Assembly: GCA_025062195.1 (NCBI GenBank)
Contig: JANXAS010000006.1
Coordinates: forward strand, 13,072 to 77,071
Direction: 5' to 3'
Length of the DNA: 64,000 bases
Source of the DNA: Armatimonadota bacterium
GTDB lineage: Bacteria > Armatimonadota > Fervidibacteria > Fervidibacterales > Thermosaccharophagaceae
Notes under the pieces: generated by a model
What the model was told of the DNA's origin: nothing
Seen by the model: the letters and a program-made list of their open reading frames with translations, nothing else
Databases searched by the model: none
In this document: piece after piece, positions 1,858-63,003 of the stretch
Layout of the letters: each line of letters begins with the position of its first letter
Position numbering within the stretch: position 1 is the stretch's first letter
Position numbers and translations under genes: made by a program

Positions 1858-4572
1858 TTAAAGCTTGCCCATGGCTTTAAGCCGCTCCTTTGCCCTATCA
1901 GCCCACTTCGTCTGCGAATACTTCTCAAGCACAGTCCTGTATGATTTCTCAGCGCGCTCACCCTCACCGAGACGCTCATAGCAAAGTCCAGCATAAAATT
2001 GAGCGGCGCCAGCCCACTCATGAACATCTTCGTAGAGTAAAGCAACGCGCAGGAACTCACGCAATGCTTCTTTCACATCGCCTTTGAGTAACAGGCACTC
2101 GCCAATCCTGAACTGAGCCTCAATTGTCATCTCGCCAGCATCGCTTGCAGCCACAGCCTTGTAAAGTTCAATAGCTGCATCAAACTGCTTTCGGTTTTGC
2201 TTCGCCCAGGCAAGCTCAAACTGCGCCCTCACTGACAGCGCATCCTTTGGATACCGCTCTATGAACTGCTGCAGCACAACCTCGGCATCGGCGAACTTCT
2301 CAAGCTCATTCAAACACCTGCCCTTGTATAGCAGTGCCTGCTTTGTAAAAGGCGAATTCGGAAACTCTTTAAGCAGGCGTTCAAAGGTAGTCAACGCCTG
2401 TGTAAACTTGCGAGCGTTGAATTGAAGGTAGCCGAGCTGGAGCAGCGCATCCGACTTGATCTCCTCGGGAATTTGCTTTCCCAATGCCCCTTCAAACGCA
2501 TTCATGGCGTCTGAGTCACGCTTCAACATAAGCAATGTCCACCCAAGTCTGTAAAGAGCCTTCCCACTCAGTTCCTCATCCTTCCCGGACGAAAGTTTCA
2601 CAGAGTGCTCGTAATGTGCAAGCGCTTCTTCAAAGCGCTTTTGCACAAACAGCAGCTCTCCGACGAGGAAATGAGCCTCAGGGATGTGTTGGCTCTTGCG
2701 ATGCTCATTAATCAAGCGCTCAAGCACCTTTAGCGCTTCAGCGCGCTTCCCGGCATCTATGTAGACCCAGCCAAGTTGATACAATGCTTTGTCGCACAAC
2801 TCCGAATTCGGATATTCCTTGAGCAAACGCTCAAACGCCGCAGCGGCTTCGTCAAAGCGCTTCAACTCGTAAAGGCAAAGCCCATCCCTGTAAAGGGCTG
2901 TTGCGAGTTTGACCTCGTCCTTTAAGCCGGAGTTGATGAATGCGACAAACTCTTCATGTGCCTCATTGAAGCGCTTAAGCATCCAAAGCGAATTTGCGCG
3001 CCAGTAACGAGCCTCTGGGACAAGTTTATCATTTGGGAAGCGCTTTATGAGTTCGCCATAAGCATTTGCAGCATCTTCAAAACGCTCACGGACAAAATCT
3101 ACAGCGCCAAGCGCAAACAGTGTTGCCGGGGCGATCGCAGCCTGTGGGAAATGCTCAAGGACGAACTTGTAAATTCGTTCGGCAGTATCATACTCCTTTT
3201 TTTCATATGCCACCTTGCCACTCTCAAGCAATGCTAAAGCCACATCCTCAGCTGCCTCACCGGTCAGTTTCAACTTTAAGATGACCTTTTGAATGCGCTC
3301 AAACTCACCGGCACGAATGAGCGCAACGATGAGCGATGTCACCGCAGCACGCATGCGCTCTTCCTTAAAAGCCATCTCCGCCAAATTTGTTAATTCCCTT
3401 ATAGCGCCCTCAACATTTCCGCCTTTGAGAGCGCATTCAGCCAACATCACTCTTATCAGCGCCACATCCCTTTCATCCTTTGCACGCTCAAGTGCTACCA
3501 TGAGTGACTTTGCTGCCTCGTCATAGCGCTCCATCGCCATGTATGCTTCTCCGAGCGCAAGATGCGCCCTGGCAACATATGGTGAGTTTGGCATCGTCCT
3601 AATGAGCAGGAGGAATTGCGCCGCAGCATTCTGTGGTTGCTTCATGCGAAGCAGGCATTGCCCACCCCAATAAATTGCATGGTCGGCAAATGGATGCGCC
3701 CTATCTTCGGCTACCTTTCTGTATATCTCCAATGCCTTTTCATAGCGCTTCAAGTTGAAGTGACAGTCAGCCTGTCGGACAATCGCTTCCATAGCAGCCT
3801 GTGTCTTCGGGTAGCGTGCCACCACCTCGCCAAAGAACTTGGCTGCCTCCTCATATTGACCGCTCTCAAAGCTCACCCATGCAATGCCGAGCATCGCGTC
3901 GGCTACTTCGCTGCTATTTGGGTAACGCTTGATAACCATCTCATAGGCTGCCTTTGCCTCTTCATATCGTTTCAGATCAAACAGGCATTCCCCAATCAAC
4001 CATTGGCACTGTGGCGCAACATCGCTTTCTGGGAATTCGGCAACACAACGCATGAAATACTTCAGCGCCTCTTCATGCCTTTTCATGTCACGAGCGATCA
4101 AACCGAGCGAATATAGCGCGTATGGTGCCTCCGTCCCTTTGGGGAACTTGCGCAGCACAAGCTCATACCACTTCTTGGCTTCGTCGTAGCGCTGCATCTG
4201 GTAATGGGCTTCGGCAGTCCAATATGTTGCTCTCGCCTCAACTTCGCGCTTGCCTCTTGCGGCGGCTTCGGCTGCAGCCCTCTCAAAAGCCTTGGCAGCT
4301 TGCTCGTATCGCTTCAGCCTGAAATTGCAATCGCCAAGTATGAACAACGCCTCCGGCACACGCTCATCCTTTGAATGCTGCTTTACAAATCTTTCGAGCT
4401 CATCAGCAGCGAGCGCAAACTCCTCCTTCTGATACAGTCGCATCGCAAAGACAAAATCCTCATCGGCAGTCCCAGCGCACACATGAGGCACATGCAGGGC
4501 AATTATGCAGACAGCACATATGAGAGCTTGAGCGAGCGAAAGCGAATAGCCACGCCATTCATCTACTTGCAT
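1858..4572 (-). CDS. Secreted tetratricopeptide-repeat protein (YbgF/CpoB-like repeats), 904 aa
   Basis: Hydrophobic signal-like N-terminus (LICAVCIIALHVPHVCAG) followed by many 34-aa TPR-like units with the recurrent pattern A..Y.LG......RY.EA...FE.....YP.S. It lies directly upstream of exbB on the same strand. Confidence 0.8.
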   Translation of the reverse strand: MQVDEWRGYSLSLAQALICAVCIIALHVPHVCAGTADEDFVFAMRLYQKEEFALAADELERFVKQHSKDERVPEALFILGDCNFRLKRYEQAAKAFERAAAEAAARGKREVEARATYWTAEAHYQMQRYDEAKKWYELVLRKFPKGTEAPYALYSLGLIARDMKRHEEALKYFMRCVAEFPESDVAPQCQWLIGECLFDLKRYEEAKAAYEMVIKRYPNSSEVADAMLGIAWVSFESGQYEEAAKFFGEVVARYPKTQAAMEAIVRQADCHFNLKRYEKALEIYRKVAEDRAHPFADHAIYWGGQCLLRMKQPQNAAAQFLLLIRTMPNSPYVARAHLALGEAYMAMERYDEAAKSLMVALERAKDERDVALIRVMLAECALKGGNVEGAIRELTNLAEMAFKEERMRAAVTSLIVALIRAGEFERIQKVILKLKLTGEAAEDVALALLESGKVAYEKKEYDTAERIYKFVLEHFPQAAIAPATLFALGAVDFVRERFEDAANAYGELIKRFPNDKLVPEARYWRANSLWMLKRFNEAHEEFVAFINSGLKDEVKLATALYRDGLCLYELKRFDEAAAAFERLLKEYPNSELCDKALYQLGWVYIDAGKRAEALKVLERLINEHRKSQHIPEAHFLVGELLFVQKRFEEALAHYEHSVKLSSGKDEELSGKALYRLGWTLLMLKRDSDAMNAFEGALGKQIPEEIKSDALLQLGYLQFNARKFTQALTTFERLLKEFPNSPFTKQALLYKGRCLNELEKFADAEVVLQQFIERYPKDALSVRAQFELAWAKQNRKQFDAAIELYKAVAASDAGEMTIEAQFRIGECLLLKGDVKEALREFLRVALLYEDVHEWAGAAQFYAGLCYERLGEGERAEKSYRTVLEKYSQTKWADRAKERLKAMGKL

Positions 4573-13447: not shown

Positions 13448-14599
13448 ATGCCAAGACGCCAAAAGGGCGAAGAGGGGCAACAAAGCTTTATAGATGTTGA
13501 GGTGACACAAACAGAATCAACGACACGAGCGCAAGTTAACGGTGAGAAACTTGAGGCGCTCGAGAGCACAATAAGCCGCATTGAAAAGAGGTTTGGGAAG
13601 GGCAGCATAATGCGCCTAAGTGACCAACCGACAAAGATGAGAGTTGATGTGATACCGACGGGGTCAATAGCGCTTGATATTGCTACAGGTATCGGCGGCA
13701 TACCGAGAGGACGAATAACGGAGATATTCGGACCGGAGGGCTCCGGTAAGACTACCTTGGCATACCACATCATCGCGGAGGCACAAAAGATGGGCGGCAT
13801 TGCCGCCTTCATAGATGCGGAGCATGCTATGGACAGAAATTATGTTGTGGCATTGGGGATTGACCTTGACAGGCTCTACATCTCGCAGCCCGATTCCGGT
13901 GAGCAAGCGCTTGAGATTGCCGATGAGCTTGTGCGCAGCGGCGCAATTGATGTGCTTGTGATTGACTCGGTTGCTGCACTCGTCCCGAGAGCCGAGCTTG
14001 AGGGCGAGATGGGCGACCAACACATGGGCTTGCAGGCAAGGCTTATGTCACAGGCATTGCGCAAGCTTGCCGGCTCAATAAATCGCTCTCGGACCGCAGC
14101 TGTGCTGACGAACCAAGTCCGTGAGAAAATCGGGATAATGTTTGGCAGCCCTGAGGTGACACCCGGCGGTAGGGCGTTGAAATTCTGGGCGTCACTCAGG
14201 TTGAGGATAAGCAAGGAAGATTCAATTCGCTCCGGAAACGAAATTGTAGGGCACATTTGCACCGTTAAGGTCGTTAAGAATAAGCTTGCGCCGCCATTCC
14301 GTGACGCCGGCTTTGAAATACTTTTCGGAAAGGGCATCTGCCGATATAGCAACATCTTAGATGTGGCAACGCAGCTTGAGATAGTCACAAAGGTAGGCAC
14401 TTGGTATAGTTACAATGAAGAGCGCCTTGGACAAGGGCGCGAGAATGCATGGCGCTACCTTGAGCAGCATCCGGAGTTAGCAGCCGAGATTGAATTACAA
14501 ATACGAAGGAAAAGAGGGTTGCCAATTCCGCCGTGGCTTGAGGAGCTTGCAAGCGGGCGCAAAGAGGCTGCGCCTGTAACCGGTGCTGCTGAAGGTTAG
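13448..14599 (+). CDS. recA: Recombinase RecA
   Basis: Motifs [13 protein letters not shown], the Walker A in [29 protein letters not shown] and LKFWASLRL are present. GGAGGTG lies 10 nt upstream of the ATG. It carries ~25 extra N-terminal residues compared with typical RecA. Confidence 0.95.
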
Positions 14600-14624
14600 G
14601 TGCGACTTTGAGGCTCTATACCGA

Positions 14625-14745
14625 TAGGAGTTGCGCAGTTGTTGTTTTGTGTGGCGGATGATAGTCCGCCAAACAGACGCCGACAAAAATGAATGATGCG
14701 GGCGGCTTAACAGCTGCCCTCCACACTCAACTGTGTAACTCCTAA
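14625..14745 (+). repeat. Copy B (best-folding exemplar) of the ~120-nt structured repeat family
   Basis: 5' arm AGGAGTTGCGCAGTTG and 3' arm CAACTGTGTAACTCCT pair at 16/16 positions (2 G-U). Internal hairpins are GGCGGA-TGATAG-TCCGCC and GGGCGGC-TTAACA-GCTGCCC. It fills the recA-recX spacer in the sense orientation. Confidence 0.75.
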
Positions 14746-14809
14746 CCGAATCAAATGACCAACACAGATACTCTTTTCCAAGATGCGCAAACTGTCAGGT
14801 GGGTTGCTG

Positions 14810-42733: not shown

Positions 42734-43126
42734 GATAATCAGTTTCACTTTTTGCACTACCAAGTCAAGTTCAATGTTGAGTGCAATGTTCTGAATTCAA
42801 AGTTTGCTTCGGAGGGCGAGGCTATTGCCGAACCGAAAAATCTGCGTGCCATGTAGGGGCAGGAAAAGCCTGTCCGAAAAATTCGGCAAGCCAGTAGGCT
42901 TGCCCTACGAGGACAAAACGAAAATTCTTGGCAAACCAAGGTTGTGCCATTAAAGATGACGGAAAAAATCGGAAGGCGAGGCTACTGCCGAGCCGAAAAG
43001 AAAATTTTCCTCGCCGTCTAAAGACGGCGCAAGAGAATTCGTCACTGACCATGGGCTAAAGCCCATAGCATGGTTTTGAAAAGCGCATACCAACAATATT
43101 TGAAGCAAAGAGCGAAACTGATTATC
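42734..43126. repeat. Inverted-repeat-bracketed array of short hairpins (MITE-like or structured-RNA locus)
   Basis: 22-nt arms GATAATCAGTTTCACTTTTTGC (42734..42755) and GCAAAGAGCGAAACTGATTATC (43105..43126) are 20/22 complementary. The interior holds several hairpins and a 32-nt direct repeat (42809..42840 vs 42969..43000, 28/32). Confidence 0.6.
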
Positions 43127-43775: not shown

Positions 43776-44142
43776 GGTCCGTTTTTAATCCACCTACACC
43801 TCAACTTTGAGTGTGATGCTCCACACCGAGCTAAAAACTTCAGGCTCACCAATAGGTTCGCCCGCTCAATTTCGGATGGCGATGCCCCCCGCCGAATCTT
43901 AAAGAAGTGAACCCAATGGGAAGCCTGCCCTCAGAGCGCATCACCACAATGTTCACACCCGTTTACACTACCGTCTCGGCAAGAAATGTATGGCGCATGA
44001 AGCGCAGGTGGATTTCTTCTGAAGGGCTGTTGTCCGTCCATAAGGAGAAAACCACCGCTGCCTAAAGACCGCGCTCATGAAAAACCACAAGTTAATATGG
44101 GCTATAGCTCATAACAATGGATCGGAAAAAGTGTTCACTGAA

Positions 44143-44212
44143 GGCGTTTTGTGTAAAGGCGTTTTGTGTAAAGGCGCTTTGTGTAAAGGCGCTTTGTGTA
44201 AAGGCGTTTTTG
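44143..44212. repeat. 15-bp tandem repeat GGCG(T/C)TTTGTGTAAA, four full units plus a partial fifth
   Basis: Units at 44143, 44158, 44173 and 44188; the first two have T and the last two C at position 5. A partial unit starts at 44203. The repeat lies in the convergent spacer between the amzA-like gene and the 330-aa membrane protein gene. Confidence 0.9.
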
Positions 44213-44272
44213 CTACGGACAATCGTCCGCCCTCACGAAGTAGAACCAACTTCGCAACCCCTCTTGATTGCA

Positions 44273-45265
44273 TCAACGCATCGTCTCTATGGGGATGCCA
44301 AGATATGCCTTAACAACGGTCTCAACGCTTTCGGGGTCAATGAACCTGTGAGCAAGTGGCTCTGCATCTAATCTGACCACCTTAGTTTGACTCCCAACTT
44401 TAACCAAGTGCCTGTAACTACCGTTAACGAGGACGCAGGGACCTTGAATTAGCCCTTCCATGCGAGCCTTCATTGCCTCTTCGCTCATCATATCAATTAT
44501 CTTTACTGAGAGCCTTTCACCATGCTGCTTTCTCAGTCTTTCAACTCGTTCAATGGCTTCTGGGAAGTTAGTCACCCCCGGCGTGTCCTTTGGCGGCATA
44601 TAGAACACGACTTCAACCTTCTCGCTCGGCTTTGCTACAGGTATGCCCTTAAGCTCTTCGCCTTTGGTAGCCCTGTCTGCGAACACCTGCCTGACAAAGT
44701 TTGCAGCCTCTTGCATTGTGGCTTTCGCCCACTTCTGCTTGAGCTGCTCAACAGCCTTTGTATTCATTCCGCTCCCGTAAGCCTTCTTGAGCAGTTCGTC
44801 AATCTTTGTGATCAATCCGACAACATCCGCCTGAGGACCTGAGGAAATAACTTCGCCATTTGCAAGTATCGTGGCACAGTGGACATTTCGCTTCTCCATA
44901 GCCTTTGAGCCCTCTGGAGAATGCATATTGTAAAGCTCAAGATGAATGCGCTTACCCTCAGCCTTTAACACTTCAATCAACAAGGCTATGTTTATCATGT
45001 GACATTCAACATCAAATGGAAGGAATGCCTCAATACGCACCTTTGCATCCTTTGCACCAGCGATGTATGTGTTTGGCATGCCGGTTTGAATTTGAGGCAC
45101 CAGTTCTGTTGGCTTCGTTGTCTGCTGGATCGGCTTTCGTTGTGCACTCATCATGGATTGCTCATAGCGATACGCAAAAAACGAGGAGACGAGCACCGCA
45201 GCGATGAACCCCAAGATAAATATGCAGGCAATTATCTCCGTTGGGCGAAAGCGCCTTACAACCAT
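44273..45265 (-). CDS. Membrane-anchored hypothetical protein, 330 aa
   Basis: Long ORF with an N-terminal TM (IIACIFILGFIAAVLVSSFFAY). I recognise no family. Two internal segments look vaguely thioredoxin-fold-like but lack CxxC. Confidence 0.55.
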   Translation of the reverse strand: MVVRRFRPTEIIACIFILGFIAAVLVSSFFAYRYEQSMMSAQRKPIQQTTKPTELVPQIQTGMPNTYIAGAKDAKVRIEAFLPFDVECHMINIALLIEVLKAEGKRIHLELYNMHSPEGSKAMEKRNVHCATILANGEVISSGPQADVVGLITKIDELLKKAYGSGMNTKAVEQLKQKWAKATMQEAANFVRQVFADRATKGEELKGIPVAKPSEKVEVVFYMPPKDTPGVTNFPEAIERVERLRKQHGERLSVKIIDMMSEEAMKARMEGLIQGPCVLVNGSYRHLVKVGSQTKVVRLDAEPLAHRFIDPESVETVVKAYLGIPIETMR

Positions 45266-45279
45266 CTAACATCACCGCC

Positions 45280-45768
45280 TCAAAGCTCATGGATGGTTAC
45301 TTCAAGGTTCTCCAAGTCAAGCACAACTACAGTTGAAAGTCCCGTAAGCCATCCACAAGCCTCTCCCGGATTAATGGCGAGGCATTGATCTCGCTCAATG
45401 GAGAGCTTGTGAGTGTGCCCGTAAACGATGACATCAAACATCCGGCTTCTCTTCATCGCCTCAAGTGGTTCTGGCTCATGAATGACGGCGATGCTTCTTC
45501 CCTCAACTTCTAAAACAGCCATCTTAGCGTGCAGCTTGCCAAAGCTCTCAACTGCTCTGAGCAAACCAATTCGTTCGCCATCGTTGTTTCCAAACACAGC
45601 CACAAGATTGCAACTCAGCCTTGAGAACGGCTTGACCGAGAACGGCGCAACGAAATCACCAGCGTGAATGACCAACCCAACACCCTGTGATTCAAACACT
45701 TTGACCGCTGCCTCTATCTTAGCCATGTTGTCATGCGTGTCAGCTATCAAGCCCACCTTCATACTCAT
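45280..45768 (-). CDS. YfcE/MJ0936-family metallophosphoesterase
   Basis: Motifs MKVGLIADTHDN, IHAGDFV, GNNDGE and YGHTH are present. The start is trimmed to the ATG at 45768 behind GGAGGG; 45762 is also possible. Confidence 0.85.
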   Translation of the reverse strand: MSMKVGLIADTHDNMAKIEAAVKVFESQGVGLVIHAGDFVAPFSVKPFSRLSCNLVAVFGNNDGERIGLLRAVESFGKLHAKMAVLEVEGRSIAVIHEPEPLEAMKRSRMFDVIVYGHTHKLSIERDQCLAINPGEACGWLTGLSTVVVLDLENLEVTIHEL

Positions 45769-46303
45769 CCCTTCCCTCCGAGTGTAATCATGCCAATTAA
45801 CAATTGTAATCACTTGCCCAATCGGCTATCCAATTGCTGCCGGACTGACCGGATGTCACGCAAACCGTTAACGGTTAAAATAGCACGAGCAAAGTCTCAC
45901 ACGCAACTTGAAACCATTGCGACGCAAATACCGAGAGTGATGAAAGGTGACACCCAAACTATCCATAGCAGGGATTACTCAGCTGAATGTATGGGTGGCT
46001 GCTAATCTGCAGCGCATATTTTGCTTTCTGGCGAGCTGTCGTCCACACCGCTGCAAATGAAGATGGCTGTGCAAGCCCTGCGCAATTTAACCCCCCTAAC
46101 GATGCACGGTGCGATGGCAGACTCATTCACCAAAAGTTTTTGTAGGCAGGATATCCACGCTGCATTTTTGTGGCTCGGGCAAACTGTCTCCAAGCAGTTG
46201 CACCTGTGCTTGTAATAAATTGAGCGAGCTTATTCCCATGTCGGGTTTTGGGTTAGCGGCAGCGTGGTATAAACATGTTGGTGCTAACGAGTGTCTAAAG
46301 AAG

Positions 46304-46419: not shown

Positions 46420-47673
46420 CTACCGATGATGAAGGTGACATATAACTTCGTTTGCGAATTCGGAGCAGCGAAGCACTTTCACATCGCCGTCAATGTGCCT
46501 CGCCAAATCCTGCGTCATCTTCTGGGATTTGATTGTAAGGCTAAGCGCATTGTAAATCAAGTCGGCAGCTTCACGCCATCCAATATATTGCAACATCATT
46601 GCTCCGGAAAGGATCATTGAACTCGGATTGGCTACATCCTTACCAGCATACTTTGGAGCGCTACCGTGAGTCGGCTCAAATAACGCATGGTAATCCCCAA
46701 AGTTTGCCCCCGGTGCTATGCCCAACCCGCCAACTTGTGCCGCACAGGCATCGCTAAGGTAATCCCCATTCAAGTTTGGAAGCACTATGACGTCGTAATC
46801 CTCGGGGCGAGTAAGCACCTGTTGAAACATATTGTCTGCGAGCACATCCTTGATTATGAGCCTTCCGGCGATGTGCTCTTTAAATGCCTCTTTAATCTCG
46901 CGCTGTGTTACAACATGCTCTCTGAACTCGTTCAGCGCAACTTCATACGCCCATTGAGCGAAAGCTCCCTCGGTGAACTTCATGATGTTTCCTTTGTGGA
47001 CTATGGTTATGCTCTTCCTTCCGTTCTCAAGCGCATACTTGATCGCCTTCCGCACGAGTCGCTTCGTTGCGCGTTCACTTATTGGCTTGATGCCGATTCC
47101 GGAGTCCTCAGGTATAATCACATTGAACTCTTCCCTCAGGAATTGAATCACACGCCTTGCACCGTCGCTACCCATCTCCCACTCAATGCCCGCATAAACA
47201 TCCTCCGTCGTCTCACGAAATATGACCACATCAAGTTTCTCGGGGTGCTTGACAGGCGATGGGACTCCTTCAATCCACTTGATTGGACGAACACACGCAT
47301 ACAAATCAAGCTCTTGCCTCAAAGTCACATTGAGTGAACGGTATCCGCTAATCGGGGGTGTAGTCAACGGACCTTTGATCGCCACCACAAATTGATCAAT
47401 TGCCTTTAAAGTATCCTCGGGGAGCAACTCTCCATACAGCTTAAGTGCTTTCTCACCAGCAAATGCTTCGCACCACGCAATTTTCCTATAACCACAGTAG
47501 GCAACTTCAACTGCAGCGTCAATCACACGGCGCGCAGCACGCCATACATCCGGACCAATACCGTCACCTTCAATGAACGGTATTATCGGGACATCGGGGA
47601 CGCACAGCCTTCCATCAACAACTTTTATTGCCTCCCCACTCTCCGGGAGCCTTAGCTTTCGGAAGCCATGCAC
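46420..47673 (-). CDS. icd: NADP-dependent isocitrate dehydrogenase
   Basis: Motifs [32 protein letters not shown] and [10 protein letters not shown] are present, and the 417-aa length fits. Confidence 0.95.
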
Positions 47674-47954: not shown

Positions 47955-48029
47955 TGGAGCTGGCGGCGGGATTTGAACCCGCGACCTGGGGATTACAAAT
48001 CCCCCGCTCTGCCGCTGAGCTACACCAGC
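47955..48029 (-). tRNA. tRNA-Thr (anticodon UGU), CCA encoded
   Basis: Hand-folded cloverleaf from the reverse complement: GCTGGTG TA GCTC AGCGGCA GAGC G GGGGA TTTGTAA TCCCC AGGTC GCGGG TTCAAAT CCCGC CGCCAGC T CCA. All four stems pair, with one G-U in the acceptor stem. Confidence 0.9.
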
Positions 48030-48120: not shown

Positions 48121-48230
48121 TTGGGAGTTACGCTCTTGGATTCGGGCAGCTTTAAATCCGCCCAAATTTGTCACTATTTGTGGCTTCAACCTGCCCTCGC
48201 AAAAACGACACTAACTGCCTACCCCCTATT
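48121..48230 (-). repeat. Copy C (divergent) of the ~120-nt structured repeat family
   Basis: The minus strand reads ...GGGCGGATTTAAAGCTGCCCGAATCCAAGAGCGTAACTCCCAACCGAAAT. This matches copy B's GGGCGGCTTAACAGCTGCCC...GTAACTCCTAACCGAAT. The 5' arm and hairpin 1 are degenerate. It lies 92 nt from the tRNA-Thr. Confidence 0.55.
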
Positions 48231-48532: not shown

Positions 48533-49450
48533 TTATGAAAGATAACGCACAAGTTGATTAACAGCGCTTAAGCTCCCCAGCAGCCCAAAGATGAGACCAA
48601 CAACTGTTAAGCTCGCAAAGAAATGCCAGTTCGGAACAGCCACATGAAACAGCGTCAGCAATATTTTGTTTGTCTCAACAAGCCTCAGAAGCGATGTATG
48701 CGCCCCATAGACCATCAGCGACGCGAACGCTCCGCCAATTAAGCCGTAAACCAATCCCTCAAGCAAAAGTGGCGCCCTTATGAACCAAATTGTAGCCCCG
48801 ACAAGCTGCATTATTCGTATGGCTTCTCTGCGCGCATATATTGTCAGTCTGATCGCGTTGGCAATCAGCGTCAATGTGGCAAGGGCTGTAATAATGACGA
48901 GGGTAAGCCCGCATAACCTGACGAGCCCGAAAATGCGCGAAAGTTGCCTTACCACATCAGCCATGCATATCACGCTTTCAACTCCCGGAAGTCGTTCAAG
49001 CCTCTTTGCACACTCAACTGCATCTTCAAAGTTTACGGCGACCACATCAAGCCTATGCGGCAATGGGTTGCCGCCGGCTAAATTGCGCAGCGATATGTTA
49101 TCACCCATTGCGGCTTCCATTTCTTTCAAGCCCTCGTCCTTGTGAACGAATCTGACACTTTTAACGAGAACCCAACGTTGAATCCTTCTTTGTAGCTCCC
49201 TTGCCTGCTGCTCTGTTACGCTGTTATGAAGGTAGACACGCATGTGGTTAACCTTTTCCGATTCGTGAATAACAGCCGAACGGATATAAAGCACAATGAG
49301 CACAAGCAGACCAAATATGGCTACCGAGATGGCTGCGCTAACTGTTGCAGCCATGCTCATCAACCAGTGTCTTCGCATGCTTGTGAATGCTTCAGATAAG
49401 CAATGTTCAATGAAGCGAAAGGGCACCGCGATACACCCCTTCCGGCTCAT
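48533..49450 (-). CDS. ftsX: Cell-division ABC transporter permease FtsX
   Basis: 305 aa with four TMs and a large periplasmic loop between TM1 and TM2. It lies immediately after ftsE, overlapping its 3' end. Confidence 0.85.
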   Translation of the reverse strand: MSRKGCIAVPFRFIEHCLSEAFTSMRRHWLMSMAATVSAAISVAIFGLLVLIVLYIRSAVIHESEKVNHMRVYLHNSVTEQQARELQRRIQRWVLVKSVRFVHKDEGLKEMEAAMGDNISLRNLAGGNPLPHRLDVVAVNFEDAVECAKRLERLPGVESVICMADVVRQLSRIFGLVRLCGLTLVIITALATLTLIANAIRLTIYARREAIRIMQLVGATIWFIRAPLLLEGLVYGLIGGAFASLMVYGAHTSLLRLVETNKILLTLFHVAVPNWHFFASLTVVGLIFGLLGSLSAVNQLVRYLS

Positions 49451-55261: not shown

Positions 55262-55357
55262 GCGGTGGGCACTTAACCTTATGCCGAGTAGCGCGGCATC
55301 ATGTTAAATGATGACCCATCTGAATCCTCAGACGCCGTCGTGCGCAAATTGAAGAGT

Positions 55358-55594
55358 GTGAGTTACGCGGTTGAACATAGAAGCAGCTGTTAAGCTGCCA
55401 GCATCATTCGCTTTTGAATAACACACCGTAAACGACATATCATTCATAAGTGGCTTTAGCCACGAAAACTTATTGGGTGATAAAAGCTCTAACTTGCGGA
55501 TTTACAATTTGCGCCGTTTGCACTATTTGTTTTTGTGGTGGCTTATTGTGGGCTACTGTCAGCACTTACAAGATAATGCAGCTGCGTAACTCCC
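55358..55594 (-). repeat. Copy E (long, ~237 nt variant) of the structured repeat family
   Basis: The 3' part on the minus strand, AATGATGCTGGCAGCTTAACAGCTGCTTCTATGTTCAACCGCGTAACTCAC, matches copies B and D1. A GTGGC-TAAA-GCCAC hairpin replaces hairpin 1. A matching 5' arm GGGAGTTACGCAGCTG lies at 55579..55594. The extent of the element is an inference. Confidence 0.5.
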
Positions 55595-55671
55595 GGAGTT
55601 AGCTAAAGTTGCAGCTCCGAAAGCTACTTGGCAGGTGGGCAAGGTGTTATCCGAGGGGGTGTAGTGAGGTT

Positions 55672-56055
55672 GTGAAAGGAACTATACACGAACTCACAAT
55701 CCAAACCGATCACAAAGAGCAACTGGTGGACATAACTGATGCACTACAAAAACTCATAACTGATGCTGGGTTGGAAGAAGGATTCGTGTGCATCTATGTG
55801 CCTCACACAACTGCGGCTGTGAGCATCCACCGAGATATCTCAGGGGAACACACACCAAAGCTTAACGAGCTGTTACGGCAATTCAATCACATAGTTAGCA
55901 ACTCGCCCGAGTATACCAAAGCTGCTTTGGTCGCACCAACTGAAGTTATTCTTGTTAAGGACGGGAAGTTGCTAATGGGTGATGACCAACGCATCATATT
56001 CTACGAGTTTGACGGGCCAAGGGAAAGGAGAATATATGTCTACTTTTCCCCATAA
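55672..56055 (+). CDS. yjbQ: YjbQ/UPF0047-family protein (secondary thiamine-phosphate synthase-like)
   Basis: ...ITDALQKLITDAGLEEGFVCIYVPHTTAAVSI... is typical of UPF0047. The start is moved to the in-frame GTG at 55672 (GTGAGGT just upstream), giving the usual ~127 aa. The track start is 55609. Confidence 0.8.
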   Translation: MKGTIHELTIQTDHKEQLVDITDALQKLITDAGLEEGFVCIYVPHTTAAVSIHRDISGEHTPKLNELLRQFNHIVSNSPEYTKAALVAPTEVILVKDGKLLMGDDQRIIFYEFDGPRERRIYVYFSP

Positions 56056-56240
56056 ACTTGGCAATATTTTGGCATTGCGAGCCAACTTAGACGAACATAT
56101 GTATGCAGCATAATGTATAAAGAGCATTTTGATCATGAAAGCATGCTATAAGCTTTAGCCATAGCCTTTTATGATTCTTATTATGAACGCCACCTTCAAA
56201 GGACGGAAGAGGCTTGTTGATGCTCTTTACCGTAAAGCTG

Positions 56241-56359
56241 TAGAAGTTACACAGATGACGTTACTTAGTGAGGGTTAACGACAGCCCGCCAAGCACTATT
56301 AAAAGCAAATGATGTGGGCAGCTTGACAGCTATCCCTATACTCATGTGCGTAACTTTTA
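56241..56359 (+). repeat. Copy D1 of the structured repeat family (first of a tandem pair)
   Basis: Arms AGAAGTTACACAGATG / CATGTGCGTAACTTTT; centre ...CAAATGATGTGGGCAGCTTGACAGCTATCCC.... Confidence 0.65.
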
Positions 56360-56364
56360 TGTTA

Positions 56365-56487
56365 AAGGACCTGCGCAGTTGGCGTTGTTTCATGGGGGCA
56401 GATGACGGTCTGCTCGAAAAATCATCGCAAAAAGTTGCTGGTTCGGGCAGATTTCATCCGCTCCCACATTCAACCGCGTAACTCCTA
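56365..56487 (+). repeat. Copy D2 of the structured repeat family (second of a tandem pair)
   Basis: Arms AGGACCTGCGCAGTTG / CAACCGCGTAACTCCT pair at 13/16 positions. Hairpin 1 is GGCAGA-TGACGG-TCTGCT, whose stem differs from copy B by compensatory changes. Confidence 0.7.
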
Positions 56488-57180
56488 TGTTATTGGCGGA
56501 TAATTTTCCTGGGACATGATACAGGCTAAAGCCAGCAGTCATTGACGAAATTTTCTGGGTGCAACCTTTAGAGGGCGAAAATCTCTCACAGGATGAGTTT
56601 AAGCTTGCCGATTTTAGGACACATTTCCCGATGAGTGAAATCTTTCGGCAAGGCAGCAATTATGCCTTACAATTTGTTGCGGCAGTAACCTTGCCCTCCC
56701 ACGCTGCTACGAATTCGGTGATCATTCGTTTTCGCCATTAACGGCTGGCTAAAGCCAGGGGGATGGATCACCATGAAGCAATAGATTTTTGGGCGAAGAG
56801 TTCTATTACGAGAATCGCTCTTTACTACGAACTTTGTTGTTTGAGTTTGTAGTTAGCCACGAAGCGAAAGCGGGGTGGCGAAAAAATTAGTGCGTAGTGC
56901 GATGTAGAGAGTGCAGCCCTGTTTTGCGCTTTGCACTCCGCATTAGCACTTTGTATTTTGTCCGCACTTCTCACTCAGTTACGGCACTCCGCTTAGCTCC
57001 GTGCCTAACTGCGAACCAACAGACTTTAAAGTAAGGAGCGCCGAGAATTTTTTAAAAACGGCATTAATTGTGGCATCTTTGCGGGCAAGCGGTGAGATAA
57101 AAGCCATGTTGTTCGTCAAAAGTTGGCACATTTGTGGAAGTGCTGCAGAAAAATAAGAGTTGGTGGGGGGTGTAAAATTA

Positions 57181-58743
57181 ATGCAAGGGAGGGAGCAAGC
57201 ATCCCTGGAAGAAATTTGGGAAAAATCTCTGAAATTGTTGCAAGAGCGTGTCAGTGGTGCCGCATACAAAAGTTGGATGCGCTCAATGCGCCCAACACGA
57301 TTGCAAGATAGTATATTGATAATCACAGTTCCAAATCAGTTTACTAAAGATTTGCTCGAATCAAGATATAAAGATTCAATAGAAAAGGCAATCAGCGAGG
57401 TGATTGGAAGACCTGTCAGCATTCAATTTTGCCTCGGCATAACGCAACTTGAACTGCCCTTGAACTTTTCTGGGGAAGATTTTGGGAAAAAAACGGAAAA
57501 GCTTCAACGGGAGGGAATGGAAATGGAGGAAAAAAACCAACAACATGAGAAAACTAATGATAAAACTCCGCAAGATTTTGAGGCTGTAGTTGGCAGATCT
57601 TCAGGAAAGGAATTGAGGGAACATGTTTTATCAATCTCAACTCACTATCACTCAAATGGTTCATTTGATGATATACCAACAGATTTCAGTTCAATACCAT
57701 TAAATCCAAAGTATACATTTGAACGATTTGTTGTAGGAAGAAGCAATTCGCTAAGTCATGCTGCTGCGTGGAGTGTGGCTCATCACCCTGCGGAAAAGTA
57801 TAACCCGTTGTTCATCTACGGGGGTGTTGGTCTGGGCAAAACACATTTAATGCACGCTATTGGGCACAAAGTTAGGGAAATATATCCGAACCTTCGTGTA
57901 GCGTATGTCTCTGGCGAGACATTTCTCTTCCATGTGGTAACTGCTATAAGGGAGGATAAAACGGCAGAATTCAGGCGAACATACAGAGGCGTTGATGTAT
58001 GGCTCGTTGATGATATTCAGTTTATTGCCTCCGCTGAAAGGACAGAGGTTGAATTCTTTCACATATTTAACGAACTTTATGACACAAATAGGCAGATTGT
58101 CATTTGCAGTGATCGCCCGCCTAAGGAATTAAACCTCGGTGAAGCAAGACTGCGTTCAAGATTTGAATGGGGATTGATAACCGAAATCACCCCGCCAGAC
58201 CTTGAACACAGAATTGCAATTTTGCAAAGAAAAGCCCGGGAGGAAAATGTCAATCTTCCCGAGGATGTTGCGTTATTTATGGCACAATCAATACAAACTA
58301 ACATTAGAGTCCTTGAGGGAGCGTTAACGAGGGTGATAGCATATGCATCGTTGATTGGAAAGCCAATCACACTTGAAATAGCAAGGGAGGGATTGAGGGA
58401 TTATTGTGATTTAAGGCAATACAACATAGAACTAAGGCACATACTCAAAGTTGTGGCAGAACACTTCAACATTACAGTTGAAGATCTGCGCAGCGCGAAG
58501 CGAAATAGAAGCCTTGTTCAACCGAGGCATATCGCCATGTATTTAGCCAGGGAAATGACCACAGAGTCGCTATCAGACATAGGCAGAGCTTTTGGAAAAG
58601 ACCACACATCGGTTATATATGCTTATGAAAAAATTCGGGAAGAAATTCACACTAATCAGGCTGCTGCAAGGCTTATTGATGAATTAAAAGCAAGGGTGGA
58701 GCATACAGCACAGGCTGAATCACTTCAGCAACAGAAGCTGTGA
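57181..58743 (+). CDS. dnaA: Chromosomal replication initiator DnaA
   Basis: N-terminal domain I (IWEKSLKLLQERVSGAAYKSWM), AAA+ Walker A GGVGLGKTHL, Walker B WLVDDIQF, and domain IV (...HIAMYLAREMTTESLSDIGRAFGKDHTSVIYAYEKI). The start is trimmed to the ATG at 57181. Confidence 0.95.
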   Translation: MQGREQASLEEIWEKSLKLLQERVSGAAYKSWMRSMRPTRLQDSILIITVPNQFTKDLLESRYKDSIEKAISEVIGRPVSIQFCLGITQLELPLNFSGEDFGKKTEKLQREGMEMEEKNQQHEKTNDKTPQDFEAVVGRSSGKELREHVLSISTHYHSNGSFDDIPTDFSSIPLNPKYTFERFVVGRSNSLSHAAAWSVAHHPAEKYNPLFIYGGVGLGKTHLMHAIGHKVREIYPNLRVAYVSGETFLFHVVTAIREDKTAEFRRTYRGVDVWLVDDIQFIASAERTEVEFFHIFNELYDTNRQIVICSDRPPKELNLGEARLRSRFEWGLITEITPPDLEHRIAILQRKAREENVNLPEDVALFMAQSIQTNIRVLEGALTRVIAYASLIGKPITLEIAREGLRDYCDLRQYNIELRHILKVVAEHFNITVEDLRSAKRNRSLVQPRHIAMYLAREMTTESLSDIGRAFGKDHTSVIYAYEKIREEIHTNQAAARLIDELKARVEHTAQAESLQQQKL

Positions 58744-58749
58744 AAAACT

Positions 58750-59135
58750 TGTGGAAAAGATGTGAATAAATTGTGGAAAAGGTGTTAAAAAACTGTGAGG
58801 AGGATGTGAAAATTGGTTAAAAAATACCGCTATTTTTAATCAAGCTGTGGAAAAGTTGTGGAATTTCCACAGTTGACAAGTTCAGATTTTGTGAATTAGT
58901 TTGTGAAAAAAATGTGGATAACTTGTGAAATGGGTGTGGAATACTCATTGGCACAACTTATTACGGAAAGTTATTCACAGGCTGTGGAAAACTGATCAAA
59001 GTTTTCCACAGGTGGTTGTGGAAAACTCGAGGGAATTTCTCCGGCAAAACTCGGGAAAAAACACAGAAACCAAATTTTTTTCACAATTTTCACACTGCTA
59101 ATAATAACAACAATAAGACGGAGTAATAATTAAAG
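58750..59135. other. oriC candidate: DnaA-box cluster plus AT-rich unwinding region
   Basis: There are six perfect TGTGGAAAA/TTTTCCACA boxes (58750, 58772, 58846, 58983, 59002 reverse, 59017) and one perfect TGTGGATAA (58913). A palindromic TGTGGAATTTCCACA lies at 58857..58871. TGTGGAATA (58935), TTATTCACA (58971) and several TGTGAAWWW half-strength sites are also present. An AT-rich tract CTAATAATAACAACAATAAGACGGAGTAATAATTAAAG follows at about 59098..59135. Confidence 0.8.
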
Positions 59136-59244
59136 CGATGCAGTTAGCGTGAGACGGATAGAATTTCACGGAGTTGTAAAATTTGAAGTTGACAGAAGTC
59201 AGGCTGTGTAATATTCAAAACGCTCAAACGGGAGGGTGAAGAAG

Positions 59245-60402
59245 ATGAAGGTCGTATGCAACAGCTCAATGCTGGTTGACGGAGTGCGTGCAGCAGCACG
59301 AGTGGTTAGTCAAAGAGCAACATTGCCAATACTGCAAAACATAAAAATTGAGGCAGTGCTGGGTGAAGAGGGCGGAAAAATGCTGATAACCGGAACTGAT
59401 ATGAACACATGCGTGAAAAAAGCTATACCGGTAGAAGAGATTGAAGTTGAAGGAGCAACAACAGTGCCAGCAAAGCTTTTCCTGGAACTTGTAGAACAAT
59501 TCAGAGAGGCAAAACGAATCTCATTAGAGTTAAGAGGCAATCTTTTATTCCTTCGGGATGAAGACTCGGAATCCGAACATTCGCTTCCCACTGTTCCAGC
59601 TGATGAGTTCCCACTTATTCCGGAGTTGGCAAAGCCTCAAGTATGTGAGATTAGTCAAAGCATGCTGCGCAAAATGATAAGACGATCAGCATTTGCTGCT
59701 GCTACTGAAGAGAGTGCCGGAGTTTGCACAGGTATACTTGTTGAGATTGAGGGTGATAAACTCACATTAGTAGCAACAGATACACATCGCATGTCCGTTG
59801 TCCGAACAAGCATTCCGACTCCTATGCAAGAGCGGGTTGAGGCAATAATTCCTGCCACAGTTATGCGAGAGATACACCGTCTGCTTAGCGATGCTGATGA
59901 ACCTGTCAAGCTTGCTATTGATGTCACGCACATGCAGATTGAAACAGGGGATATGCAATGCATAACCCTCAAGATGCAGGGTCAATTCCCAAACTATAAG
60001 CGAGTTATACCAACGCAATTTGCGCGCAGGTTAGTAATTGACACAAAAGAATTCATCACCAAAATAAAGCGAGTTGCGCTGCACGCAAACGAAGATATTC
60101 CGCAAATCGTGATGAGAATCAGCAAAGATAAATTGATTATCGTTGCCGAGGATCCAGAAGCCGGGCGAGGAAAGGGGAAGGAAGTGTTGTTACCGATTGA
60201 ATATGAGGGAGAACCGATAATCATCGCATTCAATGCCGATTTCATGGCTGAATTTCTATCAAATGTTGAAAGCCCAACAACACTCGTGGAAATGAATGAA
60301 AATCGCCAACCAGTTGTTATGCGACCAACCTTGGCAAGTGAAGGTGAAGAGTGGATTTACATTGCTATGCCAATGCAACCGCCTGAAGAAACAGAATTTT
60401 GA
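59245..60402 (+). CDS. dnaN: DNA polymerase III beta sliding clamp
   Basis: ~385 aa with three-domain length and periodicity. The N-terminus MKVVCNSSMLVDGVRAAARVVSQRATLPILQNIKIEA is typical. It lies between dnaA and recF. The ATG at 59245 sits 8 nt after GGAGGG; the track uses the GTG at 59236. Confidence 0.95.
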   Translation: MKVVCNSSMLVDGVRAAARVVSQRATLPILQNIKIEAVLGEEGGKMLITGTDMNTCVKKAIPVEEIEVEGATTVPAKLFLELVEQFREAKRISLELRGNLLFLRDEDSESEHSLPTVPADEFPLIPELAKPQVCEISQSMLRKMIRRSAFAAATEESAGVCTGILVEIEGDKLTLVATDTHRMSVVRTSIPTPMQERVEAIIPATVMREIHRLLSDADEPVKLAIDVTHMQIETGDMQCITLKMQGQFPNYKRVIPTQFARRLVIDTKEFITKIKRVALHANEDIPQIVMRISKDKLIIVAEDPEAGRGKGKEVLLPIEYEGEPIIIAFNADFMAEFLSNVESPTTLVEMNENRQPVVMRPTLASEGEEWIYIAMPMQPPEETEF

Positions 60403-60428
60403 AACCTCATAGACAGGAGTGGCAAGAT

Positions 60429-61571
60429 TTGCATATCTGCCGAATAATGGCGAGAAATTTCCGAATTTACTCAGTGATTGATATTGCTTTACCAACAGGT
60501 ATTATTGCAGTTGTAGGTGATAACGCACAAGGGAAAACCACATTTGTAGAGGCTATTGCATTTGCATTGACTGGAGAATCGCCAAGAACACACGATGACA
60601 GAGAAGTATTACAAAAAGGGGCAAAATATGCGGTAGTGAAAGTGCTTGTCAGGCTTGAAAAGGGCGAAGAACACTGGCTCGAGATCGCCATTGCGGACGG
60701 AAGGAAAAGGTGGATTATTGACGGGAAAGCGAGGCGAAAATGGGAGGAAGGATGGGCTCCATTCCATGTAGTTTACTTCATGCCACATGAGATTCAAATA
60801 GTAAGCGGAGAACCCCGTGGAAGACGAGAGTTGCTTGATAAAACGCTCTCCCATTGGAACCATAGTTATCACTTTAACTTACTGAACTACCGCCGTGCAA
60901 TATCTCATAGGAATGCTTTACTTGAGAGAATAAATCAGGAAGGCAATCTGACGAAGGAGTCAAGAGCCGAGATTGATAACTGGAACATGCAGGTTGCAAA
61001 ATATGGCGCCAGATTGATTGGAATGAGGCTTGAATTTATCCAGCGATGGCATCCACTTGTTTGGGAATTCTTCTCGGAACTCGGCGGGGTGGGTAGAGTA
61101 GAATTGCGCTATGTTTCGTCACTTGGAGAGGACGCATTAAAACTCTACAGCAGTGGGAAAATAGAGGCATTATTGGAACGATATATTGAGTTGCTTGAAG
61201 AGGCATTACTGCGAGACATAGAAACAACAGCCACAAGCGTCGGACCTCACAGAGATGATTTGCAAATTTTGATTGATAACATGGATGTGCGAGATTACGG
61301 CTCATCTGGTCAGCAAAAACTCACGTTACTGGCTATGAAACTTTCGCTTGGCAAGCTGCATGAGCTGGAGAGAAAAATGTCATCAATAATTCTACTTGAT
61401 GATGCATTATCTCAGCTTGACAACAAGCGCCGGAGAAAATTGTTTGAAGTCATCCAAAGGTATGAGCAATGCATAATTACAATGACAAGTTTTGAGGATA
61501 TACCTCAACCTTTTAGGGATATTTGCGCTCTCTTCCAAATAGAGAGGGGTAAGGTGACAAGAATCAAATGA
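60429..61571 (+). CDS. recF: DNA replication and repair protein RecF
   Basis: NFRIY near the N-terminus, Walker A GDNAQGKTTFVEAI, signature GSSGQQKLTLLAMKL and Walker B IILLDDALSQLD. I prefer the TTG at 60429 (AGGAG 10 nt upstream); the track start is 60399. Confidence 0.9.
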   Translation: MHICRIMARNFRIYSVIDIALPTGIIAVVGDNAQGKTTFVEAIAFALTGESPRTHDDREVLQKGAKYAVVKVLVRLEKGEEHWLEIAIADGRKRWIIDGKARRKWEEGWAPFHVVYFMPHEIQIVSGEPRGRRELLDKTLSHWNHSYHFNLLNYRRAISHRNALLERINQEGNLTKESRAEIDNWNMQVAKYGARLIGMRLEFIQRWHPLVWEFFSELGGVGRVELRYVSSLGEDALKLYSSGKIEALLERYIELLEEALLRDIETTATSVGPHRDDLQILIDNMDVRDYGSSGQQKLTLLAMKLSLGKLHELERKMSSIILLDDALSQLDNKRRRKLFEVIQRYEQCIITMTSFEDIPQPFRDICALFQIERGKVTRIK

Positions 61572-62188
61572 AAGATAGATTGATATCAATAAGCGAAGTC
61601 ATAGAAGATTGGGTTAAAAGATCAAAGAAACTTAAAGGAAATGTGAATTCCGCTTCCCAGGGGAGGGACTTTGAGGAATCGAGGCAGCAACAACTCGTTT
61701 TTTCCTGTTGGGAAGAGGCGGTTGGAAAGAAGGTAGCAAGTGTTGTCACACCTTATAAGTTTGAGCGTGGAATTCTCTATGTTTGCACAGAATCATCATC
61801 ATGGGCGCAGGAAATATCCTTCATGAAAATGGAAATAATCCGAAAGATAAATGAAAAACTTGGTGGAAACTTTGTTGCTGACATATATTGTCGTATTGGA
61901 ATGCCTGGCGGTATTGCAAAGCAAAGGCGAGGTGAGAGAGAATCTAAAACGCTAATTGCAACGCAACTTGCCAAAATAAAGCTGCCAAAGGAAATTGAGC
62001 AACGCGTGAATGAAATGGTTTCGGCAATACAGAATGATGAATTAAGGGATCTGATGAGGCGTGTTTTTACGCTTCACATGAAACTCAAGTTATGGCGCCA
62101 AAGGCACGGATTAAAGCGATGTGAGAATTGTGGGGAGGTCTATAAAGCTGATGAGAAAGCCTGCCCAATTTGCTCAATAAAGGAATGA
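61568..62188 (+). CDS. DUF721 (DciA/RemB-family) protein with C-terminal zinc-ribbon extension
   Basis: WEEAVGKKVASVVTPYKFERGILYVCTESSSWAQEISFMKMEIIRKINEKLG fits DUF721. The C-terminus has CENCGEVYKADEKACPIC. It overlaps recF by 4 nt. Confidence 0.7.
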   Translation: MKDRLISISEVIEDWVKRSKKLKGNVNSASQGRDFEESRQQQLVFSCWEEAVGKKVASVVTPYKFERGILYVCTESSSWAQEISFMKMEIIRKINEKLGGNFVADIYCRIGMPGGIAKQRRGERESKTLIATQLAKIKLPKEIEQRVNEMVSAIQNDELRDLMRRVFTLHMKLKLWRQRHGLKRCENCGEVYKADEKACPICSIKE

Positions 62189-62961
62189 TTCTTGGAAGGA
62201 AGGGGTCAGATGTGAAAAGTAACGAGAAAGACTGGCAGGTTGAGGCAGAGATTAGAAACTTGCTTTTACGAGCAAATGTTGAAAGAACCCGTGGAAATTA
62301 CCAGAGGGCACTTGAGCTTGTAAAGCGTGCTTATGAACTTGCGCCTGATAACCCACAAGTCCTTGAGCTGTATGGCGACATACTCCGCGCTCGTGGTAGA
62401 CTAAAAGAAGCCTTGGAAATGTATCAGGCAGCACTTCAAAAAGTTCACCACAAACCCTCGGTTGAAGAAAAGATAGCATCGCTAACCCTTGAACTATCAG
62501 AGATAGCAAGGCAAGAGGAACTGAGAGCATGGCTGAGAGAGCATCCAGAACATCGTCCAAGAGCAAAAAATCCCACATTAGCGGTTTTAGCCTCAATGAT
62601 GATTCCGGGTGCAGGGCAAGTTTATAACGGAGATTTTGTCAAAGGATTTGCGCTATTTGGTGTTTCTCTTCTAAGTTTTGCTGGGTGGCTGACTCCAGTA
62701 TTTGATGCTTTGGGAAAAGCTGCCAAGAAATTTGGGGCAATTAGCCTTAATTCCTTGCTTGAGGTCATGCGTGATTGGAGCACGCTAAAATTGGTCTTGT
62801 TGCTCGTTGTGATGATGGTTTTCTTTTTGGCATGGACTTATGCAATTATTGAGGCGGGTATAACGGCATTTCAATTGCAAAAGGCAGCACAGCTTGAATT
62901 TGAAGAAGCTTTTAGAAGGCGTAAAGAAGAAAACCAACAATTACAAAGTTCAAAAGATTAG
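62185..62961 (+). CDS. TPR-repeat membrane protein
   Basis: N-terminal TPR units (RGNYQRALELVKRAYELAPDNPQVLELYGDILRARGRLKEALEMYQAAL), then TM helices including MMIPGAGQVYNGDFVKGFALFGV. The ATG at 62185 overlaps the upstream stop (ATGA). Confidence 0.65.
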   Translation: MILGRKGSDVKSNEKDWQVEAEIRNLLLRANVERTRGNYQRALELVKRAYELAPDNPQVLELYGDILRARGRLKEALEMYQAALQKVHHKPSVEEKIASLTLELSEIARQEELRAWLREHPEHRPRAKNPTLAVLASMMIPGAGQVYNGDFVKGFALFGVSLLSFAGWLTPVFDALGKAAKKFGAISLNSLLEVMRDWSTLKLVLLLVVMMVFFLAWTYAIIEAGITAFQLQKAAQLEFEEAFRRRKEENQQLQSSKD

Positions 62962-63003
62962 TCTTGAATATAGTAAAAACAATGGCTTTGGTGATAGCAA
63001 AAT

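Follow-up and report, generated by a model that had tools for sequence, protein, structure and literature searches.

A decaying family of ~120-nt hairpin repeats with IS701/ISAba11-group ends, probably MITEs, in an Armatimonadota genome

Several families of short intergenic repeats with hairpin-forming potential have been described in bacteria. The Correia/NEMIS elements of Neisseria, MITEAba12 of Acinetobacter and the MaeMITEs of Microcystis are short, non-coding and multi-copy, carry terminal inverted repeats and target-site duplications, are largely intergenic and have the capacity to form a long hairpin; Correia elements duplicate TA, and MITEAba12 duplicates 9 bp. The ERIC/IRU and REP/REPIN sequences of Proteobacteria are likewise intergenic, measure ~30 to 130 nt and form hairpins when transcribed, and REPINs are not known to make target-site duplications. 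Among insertion sequences (ISs), the ISAba11 group of IS701 (ISAba11, ISMesi2, ISPlag1; NF049921, "transpos_IS701_2") comprises elements of ~1.05 to 1.3 kb with the terminal core TAGGA(G/C)TTACGCA(GTTG). The terminal repeat of ISPlag1 of Planktothrix, a member of the IS701 group, reads CAGGACTTACGCA... (PMC2464740). Short, non-coding 197-bp remnants of ISPlag1 with IS701-group repeats and a AGGACTTACGCA core flank the deleted mcy cluster of Planktothrix; these are described as local deletion remnants of inserted IS copies rather than a dispersed, amplified family, and their terminal repeats are longer (29 to 48 bp) and diverge past the core (PMC2464740). MITEs of Thiomargarita end in TATAG (PMC4853749) and may be related to the repeats described here, although the main text of that paper carries no sequence for comparison.

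The repeats that are the subject of this study share their terminal core with the ISAba11 group, to which it is identical, but are only 105 to 125 bp long (239 bp in one case), have no transposase gene and show no recognisable derivation of their interior from an IS body. From Correia/NEMIS, MITEAba12 and MaeMITEs they differ in parent IS family and in duplication length (here 5 bp), and there is no sequence similarity. ERIC/IRU and REP/REPIN elements differ in having no target-site duplications, no DDE-IS partner, unrelated sequences and a narrow taxonomic range. Taken together, the evidence below suggests, with a probability of about 0.9, that the ~120-nt repeat is a decaying MITE family with IS701/ISAba11-group ends, an ordinary genomic parasite rather than a new RNA gene.

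The window (the whole stretch of 64,000 nt that was analysed, from an Armatimonadota bacterium) had been described in a sequence-only reading as holding six copies of a dispersed ~120-nt repeat. All six segments were present and alignable, and the repeat was borne out both by inspection and by an nhmmer profile built from five copies, which recovered those five at E values of 1e-25 to 1e-36 and the 3' half of the sixth (copy E) at 9.5e-12. Profile and covariance-model searches of the window added a degenerate copy F and a copy G that keeps only its 5' half; the covariance model returned the same set as the profile plus one weak relic at 42832-42933. Copy limits were refined to run from the first T of TAGG to the last A of CCTA, which gives non-coding elements of 105 to 125 bp (copy E, 239 bp). 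Every copy is intergenic, in agreement with the earlier description, and no ORF of ≥80 aa lies within any of them, while two long mechanical ORFs cross D2 (56390-56659) and E (55609-56055).

Copy A (374-494, + strand; 77.4 bits with the covariance model) lies between exbD (736-1179, −) and a TonB-like ORF (−), with arms TAGGTAGTCACGCAGTT and AACTGCGTAACCCCTA and 5-bp flanks AAAAT and AAACT that match at four of five positions. Copy B (14625-14744, +; 100.8 bits) occupies the recA-recX spacer and has the best-preserved hairpin, its arms (17 to 18 bp) pairing over 16 to 20 bp; it is bracketed by an exact 5-bp target-site duplication, ACCGA (14620-14624 and 14745-14749). Copy C (48122-48228, −; 48.3 bits) is found between an ftsX-like gene (48533-49450, −) and tRNA-Thr (47955-48029, −), 92 nt from the end of the latter; its hairpin 1 is partly deleted and no target-site duplication is kept. 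Copy D1 (56241-56359, +; 77 bits), with the UPF0047 gene upstream and dnaA (57160-58743) downstream, has degenerate arms (TAGAAGTTACACAGAT and GTGCGTAACTTTTA). Copy D2 (56365-56487, +; 99.9 bits) starts 5 bp from the end of D1 and retains the exact duplication TGTTA (56360-56364 and 56488-56492). Since D2 is 77.6% identical to the subfamily consensus of the Armatimonadota metagenome-assembled genome (MAG) SKYB17 but only 55.6% identical to D1, the pair represents two independent insertions and no tandem duplication. These gene contexts (recA and recX around B, exbD and the TonB-like ORF around A, tRNA-Thr 92 nt from C, dnaA downstream of D1 and D2) are those reported before. Copy E (55357-55595, −), of which only the 3' half had been taken for a repeat, is indeed an element on the minus strand, but it has both arms (CGGGAGTTACGCAGCTG and CAACCGCGTAACTCACA) and a 239-nt body; it is a long variant with an interior ~120 nt longer than in the other copies, matched by the covariance model in two parts (55355-55476 and 55492-55597).

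The strongly degenerate copy F (~45965-46086, limits approximate, −; 56.7 bits, E = 1e-12) has as neighbours an icd-like gene (46420-47673, −) and a metallophosphoesterase gene (45280-45813, −). Copy G (~44211-44263, −; 19.5 bits, E = 0.007) consists of the 5' arm and hairpin 1 and begins 10 nt past the stop codon of an ORF at 44273-45265 (−). Directly adjoining G is a 15-nt tandem array at 44141-44210 (AAGGCGTTTTGTGTA, 4.7 copies, 96% matches), which may record how G lost its 3' half. The relic at 42832-42933 (21.4 bits, E = 0.002) is uncertain; it resembles a MITE interior (TGTAGGGGCAG...CTGTCCGAAAAA...CCCTAC) and has no recognisable arms. An exact duplication was kept in only two of the seven full-length window copies (B and D2), and inspection of the flanks of C, D1, E and F found no direct repeat left.

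Other features of the window were recorded alongside these copies. At 42734-43126 lies a second intergenic element of ~393 bp with 22-nt inverted repeats (GATAATCAGTTTCACTTTTTGC and GCAAAGAGCGAAACTGATTATC, 91% complementary), inside which a direct repeat of 31 nt occurs at 42809 and 42969; it has no Rfam match at gathering score. Its segment 43000-43114 is 84.7% identical to positions 3927-4043 of a locus in the Armatimonadota MAG SKYB71 (L085), while coding DNA of other Armatimonadota MAGs is only ~70% identical to the window. Candidates for its identity are another MITE and a conserved non-coding element. Between dnaA and the next gene (from 59236), nine DnaA-box-like 9-mers (TTATCCACA, at most one mismatch) cluster at 58750-59025, probably forming oriC; the cluster sits downstream of dnaA, and the region upstream of dnaA that holds D1, D2 and E contained no DnaA boxes. 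G+C content drops from ~0.49-0.51 to 0.428 over 56001-64000 (dnaA and downstream).

The distribution of the arms was established by scanning one genome per prokaryotic species with the two-block pattern GCAGTT-N70-100-YCAANNGYGTAACYCCYA. At least 120 loci were returned, against a chance expectation of ~34 (a rough estimate that assumes uniform base composition). Nearly all listed matches extend to TAGGAGTTACGCAGTTG ... CAACTGCGTAACTCCTA, including TA and GGAGTTAC, neither of which the pattern demands, and the upstream TA, which lies outside the pattern, was seen in 122 to 123 of 127 elements among the matches listed. The lineages with these arms, again among the matches listed, are Armatimonadota, Acidobacteriota (Pyrinomonadaceae), Chloroflexota, Myxococcota, Planctomycetota, Poribacteria, Desulfobacterota (including the cable bacteria Electrothrix and Electronema), Gammaproteobacteria (Thiomargarita, Competibacter, Chromatiaceae) and Methanosarcinales archaea. 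A single match in the viral contig collection (L002) has the two blocks but lacks the remainder of the arm; it seems to be a chance match within other sequence. Over 123 of the listed elements, information content is near 2 bits across ~18 nt at each end and ~0 bits in the interior: only the terminal ~18 bp are common between lineages, and the interiors are unrelated and lineage-specific. Such a combination is what a protein-recognition site at the termini of a mobile element would show, and it does not fit a conserved RNA fold. Elements with the same arms and a common interior of ~107 nt were present in MAGs of Methanotrichaceae and Methanosarcina (L004, L101, L102, L103, L111), and the transposase encoded on a plasmid of Methanosarcina barkeri shares 52% identity with that of the Desulfobotulus mexicanus IS copy described below (P0011); both the IS group and its MITEs therefore cross the boundary between bacteria and archaea.

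The partner IS was reached via solo left arms. In a Pyrinomonadaceae locus (L018), an ORF that starts MNPPK... lies 27 nt beyond such an arm, and a Desulfobacterales locus (L086) holds a complete homologue of 331 aa, the end of which lies inside the right arm. Pairs of arms 0.5 to 3.5 kb apart were also considered as an autonomous element and were discarded, being mostly a chance half-site and the next MITE enclosing ordinary genes. The 331-aa ORF matched the NCBIfam model NF049921 (IS701 family transposase) at 329.6 bits (cutoff, 250) as well as Pfam DDE_5, and had 2,362 homologues at E ≤ 1e-20. Many of these are on contigs of ~1.05 kb, as expected because the repeat breaks assemblies, and one 1,054-bp contig is exactly one IS from end to end. 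Genomic copies in Desulfobotulus mexicanus (P0011) and two further entries (P0038 and P0046) start with TAGGAGTTACGCAGTTG(A) and end with CAACTGCGTAACTCCTA; the start lies within ~50 nt of the annotated start of the gene (overlapping it in P0038) and the end falls at or just after the stop codon. The stop codon is inside the right repeat in L086 and in nine of the other IS loci (L123 to L125 and L127 to L132), and 2 nt upstream of it in L126; in L086 (87-110) and most of the right ends of L123 to L132 it is the TAA within CAACTGCG-TAA-CTCCTA. Judging from these sequences, the right end of the IS would be at once coding sequence (last codons and stop) and transposase-recognition site, an overlap that may help explain why the end sequence is conserved.

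In the plasmid collection, the transposase shared 55% identity with an "IS701-like element ISMesi2 family transposase" and 40% with transposases of the "ISAba11 family". An annotated ISMesi2 copy ends in TAGGAGTTACGCAGTTG and CAACTGCGTAAGTCCTA, an ISAba11-family copy ends in TAGGACTTACGCA and TGCGTAAGTCCTA with flanks TATAG/TATAG, and a Gloeocapsa copy has the end cAGGAGTTACGCAGTTG with flanks ATGCT/ATGCT; the latter two are thus bordered by a 5-bp repeat, as the MITEs are. The ends of ISMesi2, ISAba11 and ISPlag1 (the last from PMC2464740) all carry AGGA(G/C)TTACGCA. Some IS flanks are odd: the ISMesi2 copy on plasmid pMESIL01 of Allomeiothermus silvanus (L131) has a flanking repeat of 7 bp (TGGAGGA) instead of 5 bp, and inspection of the flanks of three full-length copies (L123, L124 and L127) found no duplication. 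Either the duplication differs in length between copies or recombination may have swapped the flanks. Full-length IS copies that combine these ends with an IS701-family transposase were found in other genomes, and a tblastn search of the 64-kb window found no IS701-type transposase. Terminal repeats of the ISAba11 group on elements that have no transposase gene are what defines a MITE, and the window repeat is of this kind.

The flanks of the elements speak to how they spread. Just outside TA...TA, an exact 5-bp direct repeat was found at 57 of 126 elements and at none of the permuted flank pairs (among the matches listed); other offsets or lengths of flanking repeat yielded only the expected spill-over. 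A Tc1/mariner-IS630-type MITE of the Correia or Nezha kind, which would duplicate TA only, was first suspected from the TA ends: TA flanks GGAG...CTCC in >95% of elements among the matches listed, and the long-hairpin folding and ~120-nt length resemble Correia elements. The 5-bp statistics ruled this candidate out, the direct repeat being 5 bp long and outside the TA, which itself belongs to the termini of ISs whose transposase is of the IS701 and not the IS630 family; we regard this origin as exceedingly improbable. A REP/REPIN element, for which the long hairpin would serve a RAYT (Y1/HUH) transposase as substrate, is disfavoured. The whole-element hairpin of ~110 to 120 nt, the intergenic location and the many copies would suit such an element, but these repeats have target-site duplications, which REPINs are not known to make, their arms do not consist of self-palindromic REP units, an IS with a DDE transposase is bounded by the same arms, and no RAYT-like gene was seen adjoining any copy examined, so that there is next to no probability left for a REPIN.

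Movement by the family is seen in a Desulfobulbaceae genome (UBA5173; L011, 5798-6797), where a copy interrupts an IS5-like transposase, the reading frame of which (...GISESTV) runs straight into the arm; this nested insertion is direct evidence of transposition by the family. At the recA-recX locus, two syntenic relatives (L134 and L136) keep the gene order merR-like, recA, recX, rny, ymdB, spoVS, and their recA-recX spacers measure 93 and 90 nt versus 210 nt in the window. Aligned with the window, both loci match at the end of recA and at the start of recX, with the gap falling where copy B sits, and the difference of ~117 to 120 nt is close to the 125 nt expected for the element plus one duplication. 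The shorter spacer in the relatives is, on this alignment, the apparent empty site for copy B. This comparison covers one site, the nearest available RecX relatives are distant (~60 to 62% identical), and the two loci are too diverged for the precise single-copy ACCGA to be read. Among the fetched loci, no syntenic Armatimonadota pairs with and without the MITE overlapped usefully. Target-site duplications and an empty site together indicate that the copies arrived by transposition. The sequence-only reading had offered a non-autonomous mobile element with the arms as terminal inverted repeats as one of its possibilities, and the match to IS ends, the 5-bp duplications, the empty site and the occurrence of the arms in many phyla with unrelated interiors support it directly. 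It had also held that presence/absence polymorphism with target-site duplications would make the repeat an ordinary MITE; both were judged to be present, and by that measure the repeat is one.

The state of the copies differs between genomes. Within each of the Armatimonadota MAGs SKYB17 and QQ.bins.148 copies are 93 to 95% identical, suggesting recent amplification bursts. Window copies are only 45 to 67% identical to one another, which marks them as fossils, and 52 to 78% identical to the subfamily consensuses of SKYB17 and QQ.bins.148; their arms carry one to several mismatches each. The window copies are most likely old, immobile fossils tolerated in intergenic DNA.

The competing reading is that of a structured non-coding RNA family (a small RNA or a cis-acting attenuator or stabiliser), in which arms and hairpins would be selected for folding and copy B would modulate read-through from recA to recX. 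The fold proposed for copy B, with paired arms and two hairpins, was confirmed in prediction (−61.5 kcal/mol, z = −8.8, on the + strand, versus −46.9 on the − strand). Across 31 Armatimonadota copies, 87.7% of cells were paired and 13 pairs had changes on both sides, pairing values above all 500 shuffles and the slid controls, and 11 of the 16 copies between co-oriented genes were in sense orientation. However, related sequences can exceed shuffles in such a test without any structure, and the strongest covarying pair (14 C-G, 14 A-U) splits along the boundary between two subfamilies and may reflect a single event. The 11:5 split is not significant (binomial estimate, P ≈ 0.2), and copy A is antisense to its operon. 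Nor is the strand asymmetry of copy B a trait of the family: energies on the two strands are similar, and in many copies the opposite strand folds equally well or better. Beyond Armatimonadota, conservation is limited to the arms, with unrelated interiors, the arm helix is itself under constraint as a transposase site, and the duplications and empty site point to arrival by transposition.

Database and signal searches were in line with this. The Rfam comparison advised earlier matched no RNA family to the repeat: the only gathering-score match in the window was tRNA (tRNA-Thr), and none was obtained at E ≤ 1 over 14550-14800. Copy B has no terminator-like site, and neither promoter nor terminator scans of the copies exceeded shuffle expectation. 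Without an Rfam match, a terminator, a consistent strand asymmetry or a significant orientation bias, the RNA-gene reading is unsupported, and we consider it very unlikely. The compensatory change in hairpin 1 (GGCGGA/TCCGCC in B, GGCAGA/TCTGCT in D2) had been put forward as a sign of selection on a folded RNA; both variants are present in the sequence, but the argument rested on one change and did not hold up, and neither did the suggestion of a multi-copy small RNA or attenuator. With arms complementary to each other, a transcript or single strand that runs through any copy forms a long stem, and we take the fold to be a side effect of how MITEs are built.

The internal hairpins nevertheless keep their pairing, with some double changes and above shuffle controls, even in copies that have diverged to 45 to 67% identity, which leaves a small probability that they are constrained or co-opted. 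That the Armatimonadota subfamily has been co-opted as a cis RNA element, for instance as a processing site for RNase III or RNase Y or an mRNA-stabilising stem between co-transcribed genes such as recA and recX, is distinctly unlikely in our view; if it were true, sense copies inside operons would be retained by selection and not by mere tolerance. The predicted stem of copy B inside the recA-recX transcription unit is very stable, but on the MITE reading effects on neighbouring genes, such as that of this stem in the recA-recX transcript, are hypothetical and would be incidental.

Classification as a MITE rests on short elements with no transposase ORF, terminal inverted repeats, a duplication of fixed length, termini shared with an IS and an empty site; assignment to the IS701/ISAba11 group rests on the match of the transposase to the family model and on a terminal sequence common to named members. 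In the mechanism that we propose, a full-length IS of ~1.05 kb would supply an ISAba11-group DDE transposase in trans, which would bind both ends of the element and excise or copy it, and insertion at a 5-bp staggered cut would generate the 5-bp target-site duplication. In the Armatimonadota subfamily, two short hairpins lie between the arms. Binding of the transposase to the arms and mobilisation in trans are both inferred.

This MITE family is a new member of a well-known class of element, and its parent IS group is well known too. Our literature search found no paper describing it by sequence, and a full-text search for the arm sequence GGAGTTACGCAGTT likewise found none. For annotation, these ~120-nt hairpins, present at about one copy per 8 kb of this window, are best masked as MITEs rather than treated as candidate small RNAs or riboswitches. 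The end sequence TAGGA(G/C)TTACGCAGTTG (17 to 18 bp), now known from at least eight bacterial phyla and from Methanosarcinales archaea, can serve as a marker of ISAba11-group elements and their MITEs. The findings leave the current understanding of MITEs unchanged; what is mildly notable is that the same 18-bp end recurs across many phyla and that the right end overlaps the last codons and stop of the transposase.
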